This document shows, one piece after another, positions 2,023 through 25,591 of a stretch of 52,976 bases of DNA. Made by a program: the position numbers and the translations under genes. This stretch comes from a phage. The notes below the pieces were generated by a model. It did not search any database. It saw only the letters and a list, made by a program, of their open reading frames with translations, and was not told where the DNA came from. Each line of letters starts with the position of its first letter. Positions within the stretch are counted from its first letter, which is position 1. The stretch lies in sequence record PZ049337.1; one strand, given 5' to 3'.

Positions 2023-2295
2023 TTAATCAACTTGCAACATTGCAAGCTGGAAGTCATATCCAACTAATACTTCGGACAGCTCTTCAATTGAAGTCGTTGC
2101 CGAGATTAAAGTTTGGAGGTTTTTGAATGTCTCATCGTTAAATGCTTGAGACTGTGTGTCGGACGAATAGAATACTTTGTCCTTAATCTTTTCAAGGAAC
2201 GCCATTACGGCGTCTTTTGCGAGAACTTCGGAATCAGTAGCAAACATATGATGCTCTAACTCCTGCATATCGAAAATAGAATATACAATTTTCAT
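2023..2295 (-). CDS. hypothetical protein (90 aa)
   Basis: Minus-strand ORF packed between DNA polymerase and the 288-aa gene; no recognisable motif. Confidence 0.45.
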   Translation of the reverse strand: MKIVYSIFDMQELEHHMFATDSEVLAKDAVMAFLEKIKDKVFYSSDTQSQAFNDETFKNLQTLISATTSIEELSEVLVGYDFQLAMLQVD

Positions 2296-6454: not shown

Positions 6455-7105
6455 TTATTCCTGTTTAATGAGTGCCTCCCAGCAAACAGGAAACAACTCT
6501 GACATAATTTTATTAACTTCTTCTGCAAACAAACGTGCCTCATATTGGGCGTGCTCTGTAGAGCGTTGCTTGTACATATTAGCCCAGCCCAGTAAAGAGC
6601 CAGTCCAAATCCATGTAGTCATCATGGATTGTGGCAACACCATTCGGGCTTGCTCTGGAGCAATCCCCAAACCAATTAACGTTTCATACTCTGCAATGCA
6701 AGCCTTGTTGTGGATTTCCATGCGATAGTGAATATCGTCAGCAAAATCCTGTGGCAATGGTTGTGCAGTCTGAGTCATCAACTTTTCAGGACGACCAAAC
6801 ACCACATCAGGTACAAAGCATTCAATTTCGATTGCTTCGCCATCTTTGTAACGACGGCTAACTTCGTTCCAACGAAAGCCCACCTGGTGCTTACCCAGCT
6901 GCCGCGCAATAAAGATTGGTGCTGTACAACGTAGTGTTACATACGCGTGGGCAAAAGGTGTATTGTGCTTATGCTTTGCGAGAAATTCAATCAGCTTCTC
7001 GTCGCGCAATGTCATCTCGTGGGACTCTGCACCATAAGAGGCTCGTGCAGCATTAACAGTTGTGAGGTCGCTGCCCATGTGGTCAACGAGTGTTGCAGTA
7101 ATCAT
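6455..7105 (-). CDS. thyX: flavin-dependent thymidylate synthase ThyX-like
   Basis: 216 aa; MGSDLTTVNAARASY...HNTPFAHAYVTL...APIFIARQLGKHQVGFRWNEVSRRY aligns with the ThyX signature region (from memory), but canonical RHR is KHQ here. Confidence 0.65.
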   Translation of the reverse strand: MITATLVDHMGSDLTTVNAARASYGAESHEMTLRDEKLIEFLAKHKHNTPFAHAYVTLRCTAPIFIARQLGKHQVGFRWNEVSRRYKDGEAIEIECFVPDVVFGRPEKLMTQTAQPLPQDFADDIHYRMEIHNKACIAEYETLIGLGIAPEQARMVLPQSMMTTWIWTGSLLGWANMYKQRSTEHAQYEARLFAEEVNKIMSELFPVCWEALIKQE

Positions 7106-7161
7106 TTGCTCTCCGGTTCATATGGTGGGAGATTAATTAGCTCCGCACCATAACAATGGTA

Positions 7162-7383
7162 TTATTTTAATGACGCCTGTAAAGACGCATTTAGTACACA
7201 ACGCTTCTCATATTCGCGATGGTTGTACGTGTTTGTCAGTGCTTCCGCAGCTTCTATTGACAAGATTGCAAAACCACCAAAGGCATTGCGAACTTCTTCA
7301 ATATCCATGTGCAGGACTTCACTTGTGATTTGGTTGGCTATTACGGCCTTATAAATCTCTTCGGCAATTTCAGCAGTTTTCAT
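7162..7383 (-). CDS. hypothetical protein (73 aa)
   Basis: Minus-strand ORF directly upstream of thyX; no motif recognised. Confidence 0.4.
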   Translation of the reverse strand: MKTAEIAEEIYKAVIANQITSEVLHMDIEEVRNAFGGFAILSIEAAEALTNTYNHREYEKRCVLNASLQASLK

Positions 7384-7794
7384 GTTTCTCTCCAGTTAAA
7401 ATTTAAGTAAGTGCCCTGACGTGGACTATTACGAACATTACAATACATTGGCTTAAATGATGTTTCCACTGCGGCCAAGACACTTATTAAATTTGATTCG
7501 AACCGCCCAAGTGAATCAGCCTTGTTTATGGGGACCATCGGGGAAAAGTATAAACCCGCTTAATGCTCGCATCATGTTTGAACATTAAGAACCCTTGACT
7601 TGCATATTTCATGTGAATAGGGGCATAGTCTATGTTTAATAGCTAACACCGGACAAGGAGGATTCCAGCTTAGAGCCTGAACTCAGTTCCCGACACATCA
7701 CAATCAGCGCAACTAAGCCGTATCGCTACGGTATGCCAGACGCTAACTTGAGCCTTTTGTACAGAGGCATAACTGTTTGGAAAGTGGCGGGCAC

Positions 7795-7863
7795 GTGACT
7801 GACATTTTGCACATTATGGAAGACGTTTTGCAACACATCTCCTAGTGACTGACATTTGCACTA
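7795..7863. repeat. direct repeat pair GTGACTGACATT(T)TGCAC
   Basis: Two near-identical 19-nt copies at 7795-7813 and 7845-7863 inside an ORF-free block. Confidence 0.5.
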
Positions 7864-7961
7864 GCCCATTGATTTGGTGGATTCGGTGAACCCTACGTTC
7901 ACAATTACACAGTCGGCCTCGGATGCTTCATCCCTATCCCATCGTGCAGGTTTCATTAACT

Positions 7962-8168
7962 CTACGAATCCATTGATTCTTTGTCAGGTTCTGACAGCAA
8001 ATTGCGGAGGAATGTATCCTCAGCGTTATAAAGAAATGCGTAGTAGAGTTGTTTAGCCTTGTTCCGGCTACATCCAAGAACTTGCATAATTTCTACATAC
8101 TGATACTGACGCACTCTATTATTAATGATTGCGTTACGAATGATTGCACGAATGCTAATTTTGTCCAT
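7962..8168 (-). CDS. hypothetical small protein, possible helix-turn-helix regulator
   Basis: 68 aa, basic; segment VRQYQYVEIMQVLGCSRNKAKQLYYAF resembles an HTH; flanked by ORF-free sequence. Confidence 0.3.
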   Translation of the reverse strand: MDKISIRAIIRNAIINNRVRQYQYVEIMQVLGCSRNKAKQLYYAFLYNAEDTFLRNLLSEPDKESMDS

Positions 8169-8594
8169 AGAAGACTACCTTATGTGATTGAGGTTGCGGC
8201 CTTTACGCGGCCAACGTGCCATTAATGCTGGCAAGACAGAGCTAACGTTCTCAAGCACTTTTGTCTAGGTCTGTTCCCGGCCACTGTTCTAGGAAGTGAC
8301 TACCTGAACTTTCTCGCGTTCAATACGAGGCAGCAATTTCAATTGTTATGCCCAGAGCAACTTGCAGGTTTGTTTGAGTTGGAGTCCTGCTTCCAAACGC
8401 ATGGAATTACACCACCAATACTACGAAGTAGCTAGAGTCTCGTTATTTAAAGTCGCGCACTCCCTCGACTGTGATATACGTGTGTTTAAAGTCCCGTACC
8501 GGACTGCCAAATGAAATGCGATGGCGAGCATTTGTTTGGCTGTCGTCACCTTGGTCAGTCTTTTACACCACCAACTAGCTAGGCCATGTTCAAC

Positions 8595-8804
8595 TCACTG
8601 TCGGGTAAGTTGAGAACACTTTTGTGCCCACGTTTCGTTGTGGACTAAAATCTGTGTTTTGGTTTCGCGTGATAAGATTTTAACTTCTGCAACATCCAAA
8701 TAGATTGGTTGTGCAATTAAGCAATAATCACTTACGAACCCACTTTGAGAGCAACTCACTATCGACATTGCTATCAGAACTGCTAGACACTTCTTTCTGA
8801 ACAT
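8595..8804 (-). CDS. outer-membrane lipoprotein, o-spanin (Rz1)-like
   Basis: Lipoprotein signal MFRKKCLAVLIAMSIVS|C with lipobox IVSC; start embedded out of frame in the 3' end of ORF 8728..8964. Confidence 0.45.
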   Translation of the reverse strand: MFRKKCLAVLIAMSIVSCSQSGFVSDYCLIAQPIYLDVAEVKILSRETKTQILVHNETWAQKCSQLTRQ

Positions 8805-8964
8805 GCGATTTAATCTCGATAGATTCTTTTAATGAATCCAGTTGCTTCTCTTTGGCTTCCTGACGCTCCTCGGCTTTGCCTGAGCTTTTGCCTTTGAGGA
8901 ACACTGCAATGAGAATGCCCAATGCAGTCAAGACGCCAAGAAATATTGACTTAAGCTGTTGCAT
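8728..8964 (-). CDS. inner-membrane spanin (Rz)-like protein
   Basis: 78 aa; N-terminal transmembrane helix IFLGVLTALGILIAVFL followed by charged coiled-coil-like segment; overlaps the lipoprotein ORF. Confidence 0.45.
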   Translation of the reverse strand: MQQLKSIFLGVLTALGILIAVFLKGKSSGKAEERQEAKEKQLDSLKESIEIKSHVQKEVSSSSDSNVDSELLSKWVRK

Positions 8965-8972
8965 GAATCACC

Positions 8973-9113
8973 TTAGATGGCGCACGCACCACTTGAACAG
9001 TCGTTATCGCCAGCACCAGGAACGATTGCTTCTTCGTCCTGCTTCTTCTTGAGTTCTTCAATTGCTTCTTCGGCAGCACCGAAGTCCAAATTGTCTAGTG
9101 CATCAATGTCCAT
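8973..9113 (-). CDS. small acidic protein (46 aa)
   Basis: Below the ORF-track cutoff; hand-translated MDIDALDNLDFGAAEEAIEELKKKQDEEAIVPGAGDNDCSSGACAI; GGAG Shine-Dalgarno 6 nt upstream of ATG at 9113. Confidence 0.3.
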   Translation of the reverse strand: MDIDALDNLDFGAAEEAIEELKKKQDEEAIVPGAGDNDCSSGACAI

Positions 9114-9140
9114 GAGGACTCCATGTTATTGTTGAAAGTG

Positions 9141-9235
9141 GGTGGACGAGGTTGGATTCGAACCAACGACACATCTGTCGAACAGATTGCTCTACCTGAC
9201 TAAGCTCTGGAGCAGACCTTCTGAGCTACTCGTCC
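9141..9235 (-). tRNA. tRNA-like gene with expanded D-arm; possible tRNA-Arg(UCG), isotype very uncertain
   Basis: Minus-strand read GGACGAG-TA-GCTCAG...GGTAGAGC...ATCTGTTCGACAGAT...GTTGG-TTCGAAT-CCAAC-CTCGTCC-A: perfect 7-bp acceptor stem, canonical T-arm, classic D-arm halves, but about 22 extra nt inside the D-loop; CCA not encoded. Confidence 0.4.
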
Positions 9236-10393
9236 AAAATTGGGTGGGTTTTGGTAACGCAGGTTTTCCCGAACTGCGAGGCTTGTAGAATCTGTGAGTC
9301 ATCTACTGTGTTTTGACATAACGTGGGATTGATGGTCCCGACTCACTTCATCTCAGGTACAAGGCACTACTTTGCGAGTGCAAGCAGGTGTTGAACCCAA
9401 GTACCAACAGGCAACCTGATTTAATCTACCTTTGTAGATACCATCGGTTATGAGCAGTTTATTTCCATGCTCAGGGCAACTCACTTTAGGGTGAATTAGG
9501 TTACGCAGTGCAGCTTCGAAGTCGCTGCCACAGGTTTGAGATTCCTGTGTGGAGGGAAATCCAGAGGAGCACTTCCCCAAGGAGTTACGTTTCAAATTGG
9601 CATAGCTTCTCACACTAAGCCAATTGAAGACATTCCAGTGTGCTCGTCCGTCCTCTAGAAATATCCAACTGCATAATTAAGTTTGTACTCTGTCACATCT
9701 CCACGCGCACTGGAAGACTTAAGCCTGCATTGCATCGCAGAATACAAATTAATTATTGCTCCGATTTATTAATCACATCTCGAAGCCACAATGCGCCAAA
9801 TTTGGTTACATGGGATTGGAAGACCACGGAGAGAACTTAAATTTAATTAAGCTGCAACTCGCATTTCAGAATCATTTGCATTTATTTTAAATGAATAAAA
9901 CAGTCGCAATAACTTCAGGCAGTTTAGACCCGTCGTAAGACTCAGAAAACTACTTCAATATGGACTCTGGCATTCAACCAGACTCGACTACTTTTCAAGG
10001 CACTACCCTCTACTTTTTCATCACCCGTACTGGATATACTTTCACTGGTGCCCTTCCGCAAAGATTTCTTAAAGCGTTTCCAGGATGTTTCGCGGTAGTG
10101 AATCGCTACTACTTCCAGGGTCTCCACCAATACTTTCTAGTGAGCACGTCCTTCCAGCTAATTGTCTTCTCTTATCGGAGAAGGGTTCGTCCATTGCACA
10201 TCCATATTGAAATAACTTCAATGAACACTCTTGTCTGGGCCATGAGCTTGGGCATCGGCCTACCTCCCAACTCTAATCACAAGAATGCTCATTGAAGCCC
10301 ACTCACTCTGGAATGGGTTCAAGGCAGCACCGGAAAACTTCCAGTGCATGCCAGATCGATTTAGCTTAGTCTCTCAAGTTTGCCATCGGCAAC

Positions 10394-10732
10394 TTAGAAT
10401 ACCGGAGCTTCTTCAACAGCAGCTTCGGCAGCTTCTTCAACAACTGCGTCAGCAACTTTAGCTTCTTTCGGGGTATCGAACTTAGTACGCTCAACTTCCG
10501 GCTCACCAGCTTCAACCCACGGCAGATAGAATGCCAGGAACTGCTCGACGGTGTTCTTCTGCATGGAGCGAGAACGGTCGATAGCGCCAACGGTGTTCAG
10601 GTACGCTTCGGCAGCTTTCTCAATTTTAGCACCGTTTTCCAGTTTGAAGTCATGTGCATTACACTCTGCTTCGGTCAGGAACAGGGAACCATCGTTAGCT
10701 TCGTACTGAGTTACGGTTACAATCTTAGCCAT
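10394..10732 (-). CDS. hypothetical acidic protein with C-terminal ...EEAPVF tail
   Basis: Track ORF 10394..10816; I prefer ATG at 10732 (MAKIVTV...) with AGG Shine-Dalgarno, because the recurring 17-nt motif lies in the upstream extension. Confidence 0.5.
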   Translation of the reverse strand: MAKIVTVTQYEANDGSLFLTEAECNAHDFKLENGAKIEKAAEAYLNTVGAIDRSRSMQKNTVEQFLAFYLPWVEAGEPEVERTKFDTPKEAKVADAVVEEAAEAAVEEAPVF

Positions 10733-10810
10733 TTGTATATACCTTATATTGAATAGTTTTTGCACGCCACGGTGACGCGACTTAGATAAAATTAAAGAGC
10801 CTTTCTCTTT

Positions 10811-10827
10811 CCACATCCAATTAATGT
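10811..10827 (-). promoter_or_regulatory. copy of recurring 17-nt motif (minus strand ACATTAATTGGATGTGG)
   Basis: About 80 nt upstream of ATG 10732. Confidence 0.35.
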
Positions 10828-10856
10828 GTCAGGACTGCTCTGATTTAACAAACAAC

Positions 10857-11531
10857 TCAATACATATTGAATCGTTCGATTGTTTTGATTACCAAATCCT
10901 TTGTCTCAGCGACAGTGAGTTCAGTGATGATTGATTCGTCATAACCCTCAATCTGGATTGCTACAAAACGCCCAACACCTGTTACGGTAAGTCGGTTGGT
11001 TCTGTCACGAACAACTACACCAGCTTCTTGCGCGACTGCTCGCAACAATTTCCAGCGTAAAGTTCGGTTTGGTACAGTAAAGCCCTTTGTCAAGAACAAC
11101 TCTTTCATGAGTTCTCCAAGGCAAACAGCTTCAATGTTTTTTCCTCTTCCAACTAATTCTTGCAACAGGCACAGCGTCAACATTTCTAAATTGTTGAAGT
11201 GACCAGCGCGCTCCAAATTAAAGAACTCTGGAGGAACAGTTGAACGAGATTTAACAGCTTGCTTATATGCACGTTCTTCTTCCTGTGCAGCAAGCATTAG
11301 CATCTCTGGCTTAATGTATTTCATAGCAGAGAAGCCAGCGCGTGTGGCTTTAATTATGCGACAAGCCTCTTTCATCTTGTAGCGTTGCCACTCACCGCGC
11401 TTCGATTCTGGATTAAAATGGACCCACATAATGATAACATCTTCCTTGGCAAGATAGACGGCATCATTATCATTGAGCCATTGCTTGCACGTTGATAGTG
11501 CAATCTCTTTGTCATCATCATGATAAGACAT
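10857..11531 (-). CDS. hypothetical protein (about 224 aa)
   Basis: Track ORF 10857..11588; ATG at 11531 (MSYHDDD...) has AGG Shine-Dalgarno and sits 1 nt after the upstream stop. Confidence 0.45.
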   Translation of the reverse strand: MSYHDDDKEIALSTCKQWLNDNDAVYLAKEDVIIMWVHFNPESKRGEWQRYKMKEACRIIKATRAGFSAMKYIKPEMLMLAAQEEERAYKQAVKSRSTVPPEFFNLERAGHFNNLEMLTLCLLQELVGRGKNIEAVCLGELMKELFLTKGFTVPNRTLRWKLLRAVAQEAGVVVRDRTNRLTVTGVGRFVAIQIEGYDESIITELTVAETKDLVIKTIERFNMY

Positions 11532-14074: not shown

Positions 14075-14470
14075 TTATGCTGGAAGTTCGAAGTGTGGTG
14101 CGTCTAGGAATTTAGCCCATTTCACCGGCTTAGTGAATGAACGCTCCCATGTTCCGCCCCAACGAATGACAATTCCAAGCTCTTCTGCGGCTTTGAACAT
14201 GTGTTCAGCTACAATTTGGAATCGTTCGAGGTCATTCCAGTCAATTGGATATGGTGCAATGTCCAAAGCGTTGCCTGACATGTGTCGGCTAACTGAAACT
14301 TTGGTTGCACCCTGTTTTAACAGCTCTTGTTGACGTTCATAAGAGCGTAAACCTTCCAAAACAGTTACATCAAAAGGCATGGTTTCACATGCCCGTTTGA
14401 AAACTGCAACTAATGAAGGATTTACTCCCTTAAGTCGGTCTAAAGAACGCTGACCGAGCTTAACATTCAT
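14075..14470 (-). CDS. peptidoglycan L-alanyl-D-glutamate peptidase, M15 family (T5-type endolysin)
   Basis: 131 aa; SRHMSGNALDIAPY...IDWNDLERF...ELGIVIRWGGTW...DAPHFE gives the H-x6-D...H zinc-binding pattern; no signal peptide. Confidence 0.7.
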   Translation of the reverse strand: MNVKLGQRSLDRLKGVNPSLVAVFKRACETMPFDVTVLEGLRSYERQQELLKQGATKVSVSRHMSGNALDIAPYPIDWNDLERFQIVAEHMFKAAEELGIVIRWGGTWERSFTKPVKWAKFLDAPHFELPA

Positions 14471-14745
14471 TATTTACCCTTTAATGCGTCGTTTAAGGTG
14501 TTGTTTAACAACGTGTTGAGGTTATTAAGCTCGTCAAATGCTACCTGAGCTTTGTTAACTTCGTCAACAAGCAATGCCCGAAGGACTGCATGCTCAACAA
14601 GCACCCATCCGTCGATACAGTCGATGAAAACTTTGACTTTATCAACTGGAGCGTTTAAATCAAAGGCTGACAAGTCGGATTTGGCATTGTCCAACTTACC
14701 TTTTGCCTTGCTTAGTTCAACTGGAACTTGGTCTATCGAAATCAT
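14470..14745 (-). CDS. hypothetical protein (91 aa)
   Basis: Minus-strand ORF. Confidence 0.4.
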   Translation of the reverse strand: MISIDQVPVELSKAKGKLDNAKSDLSAFDLNAPVDKVKVFIDCIDGWVLVEHAVLRALLVDEVNKAQVAFDELNNLNTLLNNTLNDALKGK

Positions 14746-14975
14746 TGAAATTTATTCCCACTAGGGTGAATGGTTAATTTGAAAGGCACTAATTCTTTAT
14801 TGATTGAGGTTGTTCCAAGAACTGTTGCCTCAAACAGCATAGATTTAGCTGTTTCCTTACCAACACGTTCCAAGTATTTTACAACTCGGTCGTGAATTAC
14901 TGCCCAATGGCGATATTCGCAATCGGATTCCAGCAGGTATTGAACTCCATCAATGATAAATTCGGTTGAAGTCAT
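14742..14975 (-). CDS. hypothetical protein (77 aa)
   Basis: Minus-strand ORF. Confidence 0.4.
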   Translation of the reverse strand: MTSTEFIIDGVQYLLESDCEYRHWAVIHDRVVKYLERVGKETAKSMLFEATVLGTTSINKELVPFKLTIHPSGNKFQ

Positions 14976-15331
14976 TTCTTCTCCGTACAGCTGGTGGATA
15001 AAACAGGATAGTTTGCTTTGAGGAAATCTCCATCACGGAAAATCTGAAGTACAAGTTTGTCTTCATGATTTATAAACAGTGCAGCAAACCTGCTATCTTT
15101 AATGTTGTAAAACAAAACTGTTGCAGGATTTGGTTCATCGCTTGGAACCTCCATCCAAACACCAGCTTCAGGAATTATTGACGCAATCAGAGGTTGGCTG
15201 TCTCCAATATTATCAATTACAAGAGCATACGCTCCGCATTTGAAGTTCTTTGTTGACGCTTTGGACTCAAAGCTGAAGAACGCCAAAACAATTAATGCTA
15301 AAGTATAAATGATGATGTACTTAAGTTTCAT
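14972..15331 (-). CDS. secreted/periplasmic hypothetical protein
   Basis: N-terminal signal-peptide-like MKLKYIIIYTLALIVLAFFSFESKAS. Confidence 0.45.
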   Translation of the reverse strand: MKLKYIIIYTLALIVLAFFSFESKASTKNFKCGAYALVIDNIGDSQPLIASIIPEAGVWMEVPSDEPNPATVLFYNIKDSRFAALFINHEDKLVLQIFRDGDFLKANYPVLSTSCTEKK

Positions 15332-24673: not shown

Positions 24674-25234
24674 TTATTTATTTCCTAAATACTTATAAAA
24701 TTTATGTCCACCACAGGCTCCTCTTCCAACAACTCTTTTGAAATTACATTTCTCTGTAGCTGTGCAGAAGTGGGTGGCATCGGTTACATCTGGAGCATCC
24801 AACAATGCGAAGTTAATTGCTACATTCATGGTGTCCCAAACCTGTTTTGATTCAGTCTTCCAATTTGTTTTAACTATATTCTTCCATTGAGCATTCTTCT
24901 TCTTTGCTTCTCTTGTCCAAGCAAACTGGTTGCGTTGATATACTACATCGCAAACGGTGTTAGCGAATGGCTTCCCGAATTTGATTCGATTACGGACGAC
25001 ATTAGCTACCAGAATCTTTCCATGCTTGCTTTCTCCACGAGCCTCAAACCAAATTACTTTGGCATAGCATTCTATATCTTTGCGTTGAGAAATAGATAGT
25101 TTCGGATTTCCATTTAAATAAGATTGACTTGCAAATTCTGTAATAGTGGCGTTCACTGCCCCAGCCGAAGCTGGGACATTTGCGTGAAACAGACTCACCA
25201 ACAGAAATGCAAGAACTTGTGCTGAGGGCATCAT
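24674..25234 (-). CDS. secreted SleB-like cell-wall hydrolase (candidate endolysin)
   Basis: N-terminal signal/SAR-like [26 protein letters not shown]; [24 protein letters not shown] resembles Hydrolase_2/SleB; adjacent to holin. Confidence 0.55.
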
Positions 25235-25249: not shown

Positions 25250-25591
25250 TTATTTGGCCTTCTTAAACCAATTGAGTGGGTTGAGTTGTTTGATTGCAGC
25301 AGTGAAGCAATCTCGAATTGTGGTAATGATTAGGTTAGCCCCAATCAAACCAATCACCATTGCGGCGATTGTGGCATAGCGCGGTTCATTTTTGAATATG
25401 TCTACGAAGCCTGGGAGGGAGAAAACGAACGTACCAATAACCACACAAAGCAGGGCATCAAAAATAGCTTTCAGCAAGCCTTCCTTTTCATATGCCCCAC
25501 GAATGAGTGCAGTCAATCCAGCAAGAAGTCCATGCAGGACTCCATACTGGTGCATTGCTTCCCATACCATCTGGAAAGTTTGTCTATCCAT
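25250..25591 (-). CDS. holin (three predicted transmembrane helices)
   Basis: 113 aa; hydrophobic segments YGVLHGLLAGLTALI, LLCVVIGTFVFSLPGFV, ATIAAMVIGLIGANLIITTI; charged C-terminus; next to the hydrolase. Confidence 0.6.
   Translation of the reverse strand: MDRQTFQMVWEAMHQYGVLHGLLAGLTALIRGAYEKEGLLKAIFDALLCVVIGTFVFSLPGFVDIFKNEPRYATIAAMVIGLIGANLIITTIRDCFTAAIKQLNPLNWFKKAK

Follow-up and report, generated by a model that had tools for sequence, protein, structure and literature searches.

A probable overlapped two-component spanin gene pair in the replication-gene block of a Carltongylesvirus genome

Introduction

The closest described counterpart of the gene pair considered here belongs to coliphage phiEcoM-GJ1 (GJ1); SpaninDB (Kongari et al. 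2018, PMC6139136) places it among the two-component spanins of the overlapped class. The same survey defined the embedded, overlapped and separated architectures of two-component spanins, left the GJ1 i-spanin as a singleton family and grouped the GJ1 o-spanin with that of Pectobacterium phage PM1. According to its supplement, the GJ1 i-spanin gene lies at 14724–14961 (78 aa) and the o-spanin gene at 14884–15094 (69 aa), with an overlap of 77 nt. A coiled coil was predicted there for residues 26–58 of the GJ1 i-spanin, 35 of whose 55 periplasmic residues (64%) were assigned to helix; the GJ1 o-spanin was given 22 helical and nine β residues out of 52. At least one periplasmic cysteine is present in 507 of the 528 two-component systems (Kongari et al. 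2018), and the commonest combination is no cysteine in the i-spanin and two in the o-spanin. O-spanins are very often left unannotated, with 196 cases in the survey (PMC6139136).

The DNA analysed here (the window) is the whole stretch of 52,976 nt of sequence record PZ049337.1. It represents a Carltongylesvirus (Chaseviridae, Cleopatravirinae) related to GJ1; the best records share about 91% nucleotide identity with the window over its first 25 kb. Compared with the GJ1 RefSeq entry, the window is reverse-complemented and circularly permuted, and all its genes are on the minus strand. The spanin locus matches 46 phage records with 90–99% identity, all of them phiEcoM-GJ1-like. The o-spanin is 100% identical to that of GJ1, and the i-spanin differs from its GJ1 orthologue by three substitutions, leaving 75 of 78 residues identical. 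Since the orthologous pair of GJ1 was catalogued by Kongari et al. 2018, the pair in the window is already known and its detection in an initial annotation, made from the sequence alone, is a rediscovery.

Architecture of the gene pair

The i-spanin gene occupies positions 8728..8964 of the minus strand, begins with ATG and encodes 78 aa. Its assignment draws on the ORF list, a match to phrog_1026, the annotation of GJ1 gp31, Kongari et al. 2018 and a cross-genus alignment. The o-spanin gene, at 8595..8804 (−), also begins with ATG and encodes a precursor of 69 aa; it was assigned by means of phrog_1275, the identity with GJ1, Kongari et al. 2018 and the signature of selection. The o-spanin ORF starts 160 nt inside the i-spanin ORF in a different frame and runs 133 nt beyond the i-spanin stop codon. 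As the ORF coordinates indicate, the 77 nt shared by the two genes (8728..8804, −) encode both the C-terminus of the i-spanin and the signal peptide of the o-spanin. The initial annotation had placed both ORFs correctly, with the transmembrane (TM) helix in one product and the lipobox IVSC in the other, but its description of the second gene as embedded does not hold: with 77 nt shared and 133 nt of the o-spanin gene past the i-spanin stop, the pair is overlapped. The gene order, i-spanin followed by o-spanin in the overlapped arrangement, is that expected of spanin genes by Kongari et al. 2018.

The upstream sequence of the i-spanin gene contains a strong Shine–Dalgarno sequence, AAGGTGA, at 8968..8974 (−), 3 nt before the ATG. 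It overlaps the stop codon of an upstream 46-aa ORF and is kept in nine of ten close relatives. The Shine–Dalgarno sequence of the o-spanin gene is weak, consisting of GAG located 8–10 nt upstream of the start.

Predicted features of the two proteins

The 78-aa protein has a single hydrophobic segment, residues 7–25 (8890..8946, −), with a mean hydropathy of 2.33 on the Kyte–Doolittle scale in a 19-residue window. Charged residues make up about 30% of the protein, and neither cysteine nor proline is present. One N-terminal TM domain followed by a charged hydrophilic remainder is the arrangement by which Kongari et al. 2018 recognise i-spanins. An N-in/C-out topology appears probable from the sequence; the charges flanking the TM segment, K5 on the N-terminal side and KGKSSGK on the C-terminal side, are a weak guide to it. 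The juxtamembrane KGKSSGK and a C-terminal VDxEL..W.R motif are conserved, and in the cross-genus alignment the TM domain, a juxtamembrane G-x-S(S/K) and a C-terminal D-x-x-L...W-x-R are retained. The protein matches phrog_1026, ‘Rz-like spanin’, over residues 1–78 of 78 (E = 1.2e-19), as well as two other PHROG i-spanin families more weakly (phrog_1327, E = 9e-4; phrog_2975, E = 0.015).

The 69-aa protein begins with MFRKKCLAVLIAMSIVSC, and its n-region carries R3, K4 and K5. The lipoprotein rule of PROSITE (PS51257) is satisfied by AVLIAMSIVSC, ending at Cys18; the signal peptide MFRKKCLAVLIAMSIVS together with Cys18 (lipobox I-V-S-C) is encoded at 8751..8804 (−). The protein is thus predicted by this rule to be a lipoprotein, with a mature form of 52 aa starting from Cys18. 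The residue at position +2 is serine, not aspartate, and a lipobox cysteine lacking a +2 retention residue is expected of o-spanins in the scheme of Kongari et al. 2018. Beyond the lipobox, the protein contains two cysteines, C28 and C63, and it matches phrog_1275, ‘Rz-like spanin’, over residues 1–67 of 69 (E = 1.1e-17). There is a single proline in the 69 residues. The initial annotation had called the Rz1-like protein not proline-rich; low proline content is not disqualifying, however, and does not weaken the call as was then supposed.

With about 55 periplasmic residues in the i-spanin and 52 in the mature o-spanin, the total periplasmic length of the pair is about 107 residues, which is short (published spanin range, 62–300). 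Both periplasmic cysteines (C28 and C63) are in the mature o-spanin and none is in the i-spanin.

Neither protein matches any Pfam-A family at E values up to 1, the Rz and Rz1 families included, and no meaningful match to either was found in NCBIfam. Because these collections contain no matching model, the family label derives from PHROG annotation and the SpaninDB survey, both bioinformatic. In RefSeq, GJ1 gp31, the orthologue of the 78-aa ORF, is labelled ‘Rz-like spanin’, and in several relatives the 69-aa ORF is labelled ‘Rz1-like protein’ or ‘Rz-like spanin’; the GJ1 o-spanin, at 14885..15094 of NC_010106, is unannotated. A protein database search with the o-spanin gave only two near-identical entries, presumably because gene callers miss overlapped o-spanins. 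Records of relatives often lack the o-spanin or deprive it of its signal peptide by placing the start at an internal methionine or downstream of the i-spanin stop. The i-spanin of phages PYps23T and PO103-1 carries the erroneous label ‘endolysin’. The discovery value of the present analysis is small, the pair being in a published catalogue and already named ‘Rz-like spanin’ by RefSeq and in the records of several relatives. For annotation the analysis is of practical use: since the annotations of relatives are often wrong or absent, the o-spanin start at position 8804 is worth recording.

Lysis genes, transcription context and homologues in lysis cassettes

A gene for a putative holin/antiholin of 113 aa with at least two hydrophobic segments is located at 25250..25591 (−); the assignment is based on phrog_126 (E = 4.4e-19), a weak match to the lambda-holin model TIGR01594 and the annotation of GJ1 gp73. 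It adjoins a gene at 24674..25234 (−) for a SleB-like cell-wall hydrolase of 186 aa, a putative endolysin (phrog_938 endolysin, E = 1.3e-19; partial match to TIGR02869 SleB; GJ1 gp74 annotation). The two genes conclude the late structural block, with only nrdF following them. A second putative endolysin, an M15-like protein of 131 aa, is encoded in the early region at 14075..14470 (−), as judged from phrog_465 (E = 7.6e-55) and the annotation of GJ1 gp21. The N-terminus of the SleB-like enzyme (24674..25234) resembles a secretory signal or a signal-anchor-release segment, and the M15-like protein (14075..14470) is of the cytoplasmic type, so that endolysin-like enzymes of two export types may occur in one small genome.

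The distance of about 16 kb between the spanin pair and the holin gene, given in the initial annotation, was measured as 16.3 kb. The accompanying statement that the pair is far from holin and hydrolase applies to the holin and the SleB-like hydrolase; the M15-like putative endolysin, though, is only 5.1 kb away. Proximity to holin or endolysin genes, a supportive and not obligatory criterion for spanins, is therefore absent in the window, but is found for the homologues in phages mEp390 and AF. No other lipobox ORF was found on the coding strand of the window. As only nrdF follows the holin–hydrolase pair and the coding strand contains no other lipoprotein candidate, the genome offers no spanin candidate besides the overlapped pair.

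The nearest match to the phage promoter consensus upstream of the spanin genes is a phage-RNA-polymerase promoter-like site at 10810..10829 (−), homologous to GJ1 ‘promoter 7’ with two mismatches, and the next is at 2053..2072. Scans of positions 7000..11000 for sigma-70 promoters and intrinsic terminators gave counts at or below the shuffle expectation, and no terminator-like site was found on the coding strand in this interval. From the promoter-like motifs, we infer that the spanin genes are co-transcribed with genes of nucleotide metabolism and replication; the site at 10810..10829 would be the start of this transcription unit.

A tblastn search with the o-spanin returned 78 phage records. 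The homologue of the lambdoid phage mEp390 closes a cassette encoding two holins, a lysin, a TM-domain protein and the lipoprotein; that of Pseudomonas phage AF comes after genes for the endolysin and an ‘Rz-like’ TM-domain protein. In both phages, the homologue overlaps the upstream gene, whose TM-domain product can be aligned with the i-spanin of the window. Reading the frame from its first ATG recovers a signal peptide and a lipobox in both; they are omitted by the mEp390 annotation.

The position of these homologues bears on whether a genuine inner-membrane protein and outer-membrane lipoprotein might serve some purpose other than lysis, for example superinfection exclusion or receptor masking; the early lipoprotein Llp of T5 and the lambdoid Cor proteins are suitable comparisons. 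Such a role would suit a pair located in the replication-gene block and flanked by the promoter-like site at 10810..10829 on one side and by the genes for thymidylate synthase and primase on the other, with the holin 16 kb away, and literature searches found no experimental test of lytic function for the family. The terminal position of the o-spanin homologues in the holin–endolysin cassettes of mEp390 and AF argues against it, as do the obligate pairing with an overlapping TM-domain protein, which is a spanin signature, the lack of another spanin candidate in the window and the spanins of T4, which are genuine though encoded apart from the other lysis genes. A superinfection-exclusion lipoprotein was rejected on these grounds, and a non-lysis role in general appears quite improbable.

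Conservation and selection

As in the window, the spanin pair is located slightly upstream of the thymidylate synthase and primase/helicase genes in three further Chaseviridae genera, represented by Pectobacterium phage PM1 (Suwonvirus), 4HA13 (Sabourvirus) and Erwinia phage Faunus (Faunusvirus). [quoted passage not shown] Among six lineages with 30–43% identity, the o-spanin residues C18, C28, P33, I34, K49, H55, N56, W59 and C63 are invariant, and none of these lineages has aspartate at +2. The lipobox of FXie-2024a reads ITSC.

Selection was evaluated in ten close genomes, using for the o-frame the part of the o-spanin gene outside the overlap (the o-only region). The 26 variable sites of this region are distributed 16/6/4 over o-frame codon positions 3/1/2 (chi-square p = 0.0085). 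Pairwise codon differences have a ratio of synonymous to non-synonymous changes of 156:42 in the o-frame, compared with 86:142 and 25:203 in the other frames; since these pairwise counts are not independent, only the site-level chi-square is quoted as a p-value. The overlap is the least variable stretch of the locus, with 6 of 77 sites variable against 51 of 293 elsewhere (Fisher p = 0.049). This pattern of substitutions indicates that the o-frame is under purifying selection. The initial annotation had named absence of translation of the second frame as an outcome that would overturn its reading; mostly synonymous substitutions in a frame that stays open across lineages point instead to translation.

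These data also bear on the possibility that the spanin is dispensable or decaying, with the outer membrane broken by another factor, such as an unrecognised spanin-independent disrupting protein. Unusually short proteins encoded apart from the late lysis genes might be taken to suggest it, but both frames are under purifying selection and are conserved in four Chaseviridae genera, and no stretch is more conserved than the dual-coding overlap; this reading is highly improbable.

The window contains four ORFs satisfying the lipobox rule, compared with a mean of 1.6 in shuffled sequences, and among the four only 8595..8804 combines an ATG start with a position on the coding strand; the lipobox alone is not beyond chance, and the pair is beyond chance because of homology, synteny and selection. 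The least credible reading, that the 78-aa ORF is the sole gene and that both the open frame of 69 aa and its lipobox arose by chance, can draw on these roughly 1.6 lipobox-rule ORFs per shuffled window, the weak Shine–Dalgarno sequence, the two near-identical entries in a large protein database and the many GenBank records of relatives in which the ORF is omitted or begins downstream of the signal peptide (gaps explained by the common lack of o-spanin annotation reported by Kongari et al.), but it was rejected as largely refuted by a frame open in six lineages at 30–43% identity with its lipobox, two cysteines and HN..W motif, by the accumulation of variable sites on o-frame third codon positions, by the nearly non-overlapping gene of 4HA13 and Faunus and by the phrog_1275 match (E = 1.1e-17).

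The spanin interpretation of the initial annotation is thus supported by the PHROG families, the identity with GJ1, the 2018 catalogue, the homologues in lysis cassettes and the selection on the o-frame. Judged by these comparisons, the pair is very probably a two-component spanin.

Close relatives lose their homology to one another no more than a few bases from the o-spanin stop (8560..8600), which indicates a mosaic junction. An HNH endonuclease gene has been inserted at this point in phage DE15 and in Shigella phage 2KOFFS, where it replaces the final residues of the o-spanin, so that the protein ends in KCSKQ and not in KCSQLTRQ.

Neighbouring elements

The initial annotation had placed the pair beside a tRNA. 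A tRNA-like element does exist upstream at 9143..9235 (−), with canonical acceptor, anticodon (UCG, Arg) and T arms and about 21 nt extra inside the D-arm, but the firm label cannot be retained: ARAGORN reported no tRNA in the window, and Rfam at the gathering score gave nothing for the whole window. The element has a partial match to the Rfam tRNA model of 27.9 bits; it falls below the gathering score of 29 because of the insertion in the D-arm. The GJ1 copy scores 41.8 bits, contains a 23-nt insertion and is annotated as ‘tRNA-Arg, may contain an intron’; the ARAGORN call for this copy is tRNA-Leu(cag). Appreciable differences between the elements of the window and GJ1 are confined to the insertion. 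The element may be a functional tRNA, a pseudogene or a processing signal.

A non-coding motif (9248..9285, −) precedes the tRNA-like element by about 13 nt and consists of CAAGCCTCGCAG, a spacer of 8–11 nt and CTGCGTTAyCAAAAC, in which CGCAG and CTGCG form a small hairpin. The two parts of the motif, CAAGCCTCGCAG and CTGCGTTAyCAAAAC, are invariant in four Chaseviridae genera (represented by the window, PM1, 4HA13 and Faunus). Possible roles of the motif are RNA processing, pausing or termination of the phage polymerase, and regulation.

Between the tRNA-like element and the i-spanin gene, an ORF at 8973..9113 (−) encodes a very acidic product of 46 aa, MDIDALDNLDFGAAEEAIEELKKKQDEEAIVPGAGDNDCSSGACAI, and ends inside the ribosome-binding site of the i-spanin gene. 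Conservation of this ORF extends through the genus and to gp31 of Erwinia phage Faunus, the products having the C-terminal NDC..AC.I in common. The ORF is absent upstream of the spanin genes in PM1 and 4HA13, and its product has no family match.

The stretch downstream of the spanin genes is poor in ORFs. It contains an exact 12-nt repeat, TTGGTGGTGTAA, at 8563..8574 and 8407..8418 (−), the copies being 156 nt apart; apart from one additional base, the repeat is similar to the core of the consensus for phage promoters (TTAGTTGGATGTGAA). Between the two copies of TTGGTGGTGTAA lies another pair of repeats, GTRCGSGACTTTAAA. An Rfam scan of the ORF-poor region 7300..8650 by E-value gave only a chance-level snoRNA match.

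The conserved positions of these elements allow a wider, speculative reading, in which the spanin genes, the acidic ORF of 46 aa, the tRNA-like element with its interruption and the invariant CGCAG/CTGCG hairpin form a conserved module that is expressed throughout Cleopatravirinae together with replication genes. Through processing or attenuation, the RNA elements might set the dosage of spanins well before holin triggering, or the pre-loaded bridges might have a pre-lysis role, such as superinfection exclusion. This reading is considered unlikely.

Proposed mechanism of action

By analogy with lambda and T4, from whose paradigms the following scheme is drawn, the 78-aa i-spanin would use its N-terminal helix as an anchor in the inner membrane and would expose a periplasmic part of about 55 residues, mostly helical and charged. 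The o-spanin precursor would be lipid-modified at Cys18 and cleaved, yielding a 52-residue lipoprotein in the outer membrane. Lol sorting follows the general +2 rule, and the o-spanin would be directed to the outer membrane because its +2 residue is serine rather than aspartate. Binding between the C-terminal regions of the two proteins would then produce a complex that spans the periplasm through the peptidoglycan mesh. The o-spanin cysteines C28 and C63 probably form disulfides; as in T4 PseT.2, these bonds may begin as intramolecular and then become homotypic intermolecular ones.

The complexes are probably made ahead of lysis and inert, early production being probable because the pair sits in a transcription unit with replication genes. 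Early synthesis should be harmless, since the action of spanins awaits the removal of peptidoglycan. Once the holin (25250..25591) triggers and an endolysin removes the peptidoglycan, the freed spanins would fuse the inner and outer membranes and so complete lysis. A compact spanin family of this kind, with about 107 periplasmic residues, two conserved cysteines and no proline-rich region, could be suitable for minimal membrane-fusion studies.

Comparison with known systems

The pair of GJ1 is orthologous to that of the window and shares with it the lengths of 78 and 69 aa, the 77-nt overlap, the tRNA-like element upstream and the thymidylate synthase gene downstream; the window represents a different isolate or a species-level relative. 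More distant likeness is seen between the window o-spanin and two groups of Kongari et al. 2018, the PM1/GJ1 o-spanin group and the BcepNazgul o-spanin family (HK639, mEp390, AF and others), which have in common with it the motif C-x4-P-I-x14-K-x5-H-N-x2-W-x3-C. The lipobox, the overlapped architecture and a short i-spanin of about 80–90 aa are also shared, while the identity to the window o-spanin is only 30–43%. The pairs of mEp390 and AF are part of a lysis cassette, whereas that of the window is in the replication block.

As with lambda Rz/Rz1, a type II inner-membrane coiled-coil protein and an outer-membrane lipoprotein are encoded in two frames of one DNA stretch. The Rz1 gene, however, is fully embedded and its product has an essential penta-proline stretch, whereas the o-spanin gene of the window is overlapped and its product has a single proline. 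Lambda Rz has 153 aa, and the window i-spanin is half that size. The window pair has no match to the Rz and Rz1 sequence families (Pfam-A, E up to 1).

The T4 proteins PseT.3 and PseT.2 resemble the pair of the window in having no periplasmic cysteine in the i-spanin, two in the o-spanin and no proline-rich region in the o-spanin. Unlike those of the window, the T4 genes are separated and longer, encoding 117 and 83 aa. They are also located, as in the window, away from the holin and endolysin genes (t and e), and given this precedent the distance of the window pair from its holin and endolysin genes is no bar to the spanin assignment.
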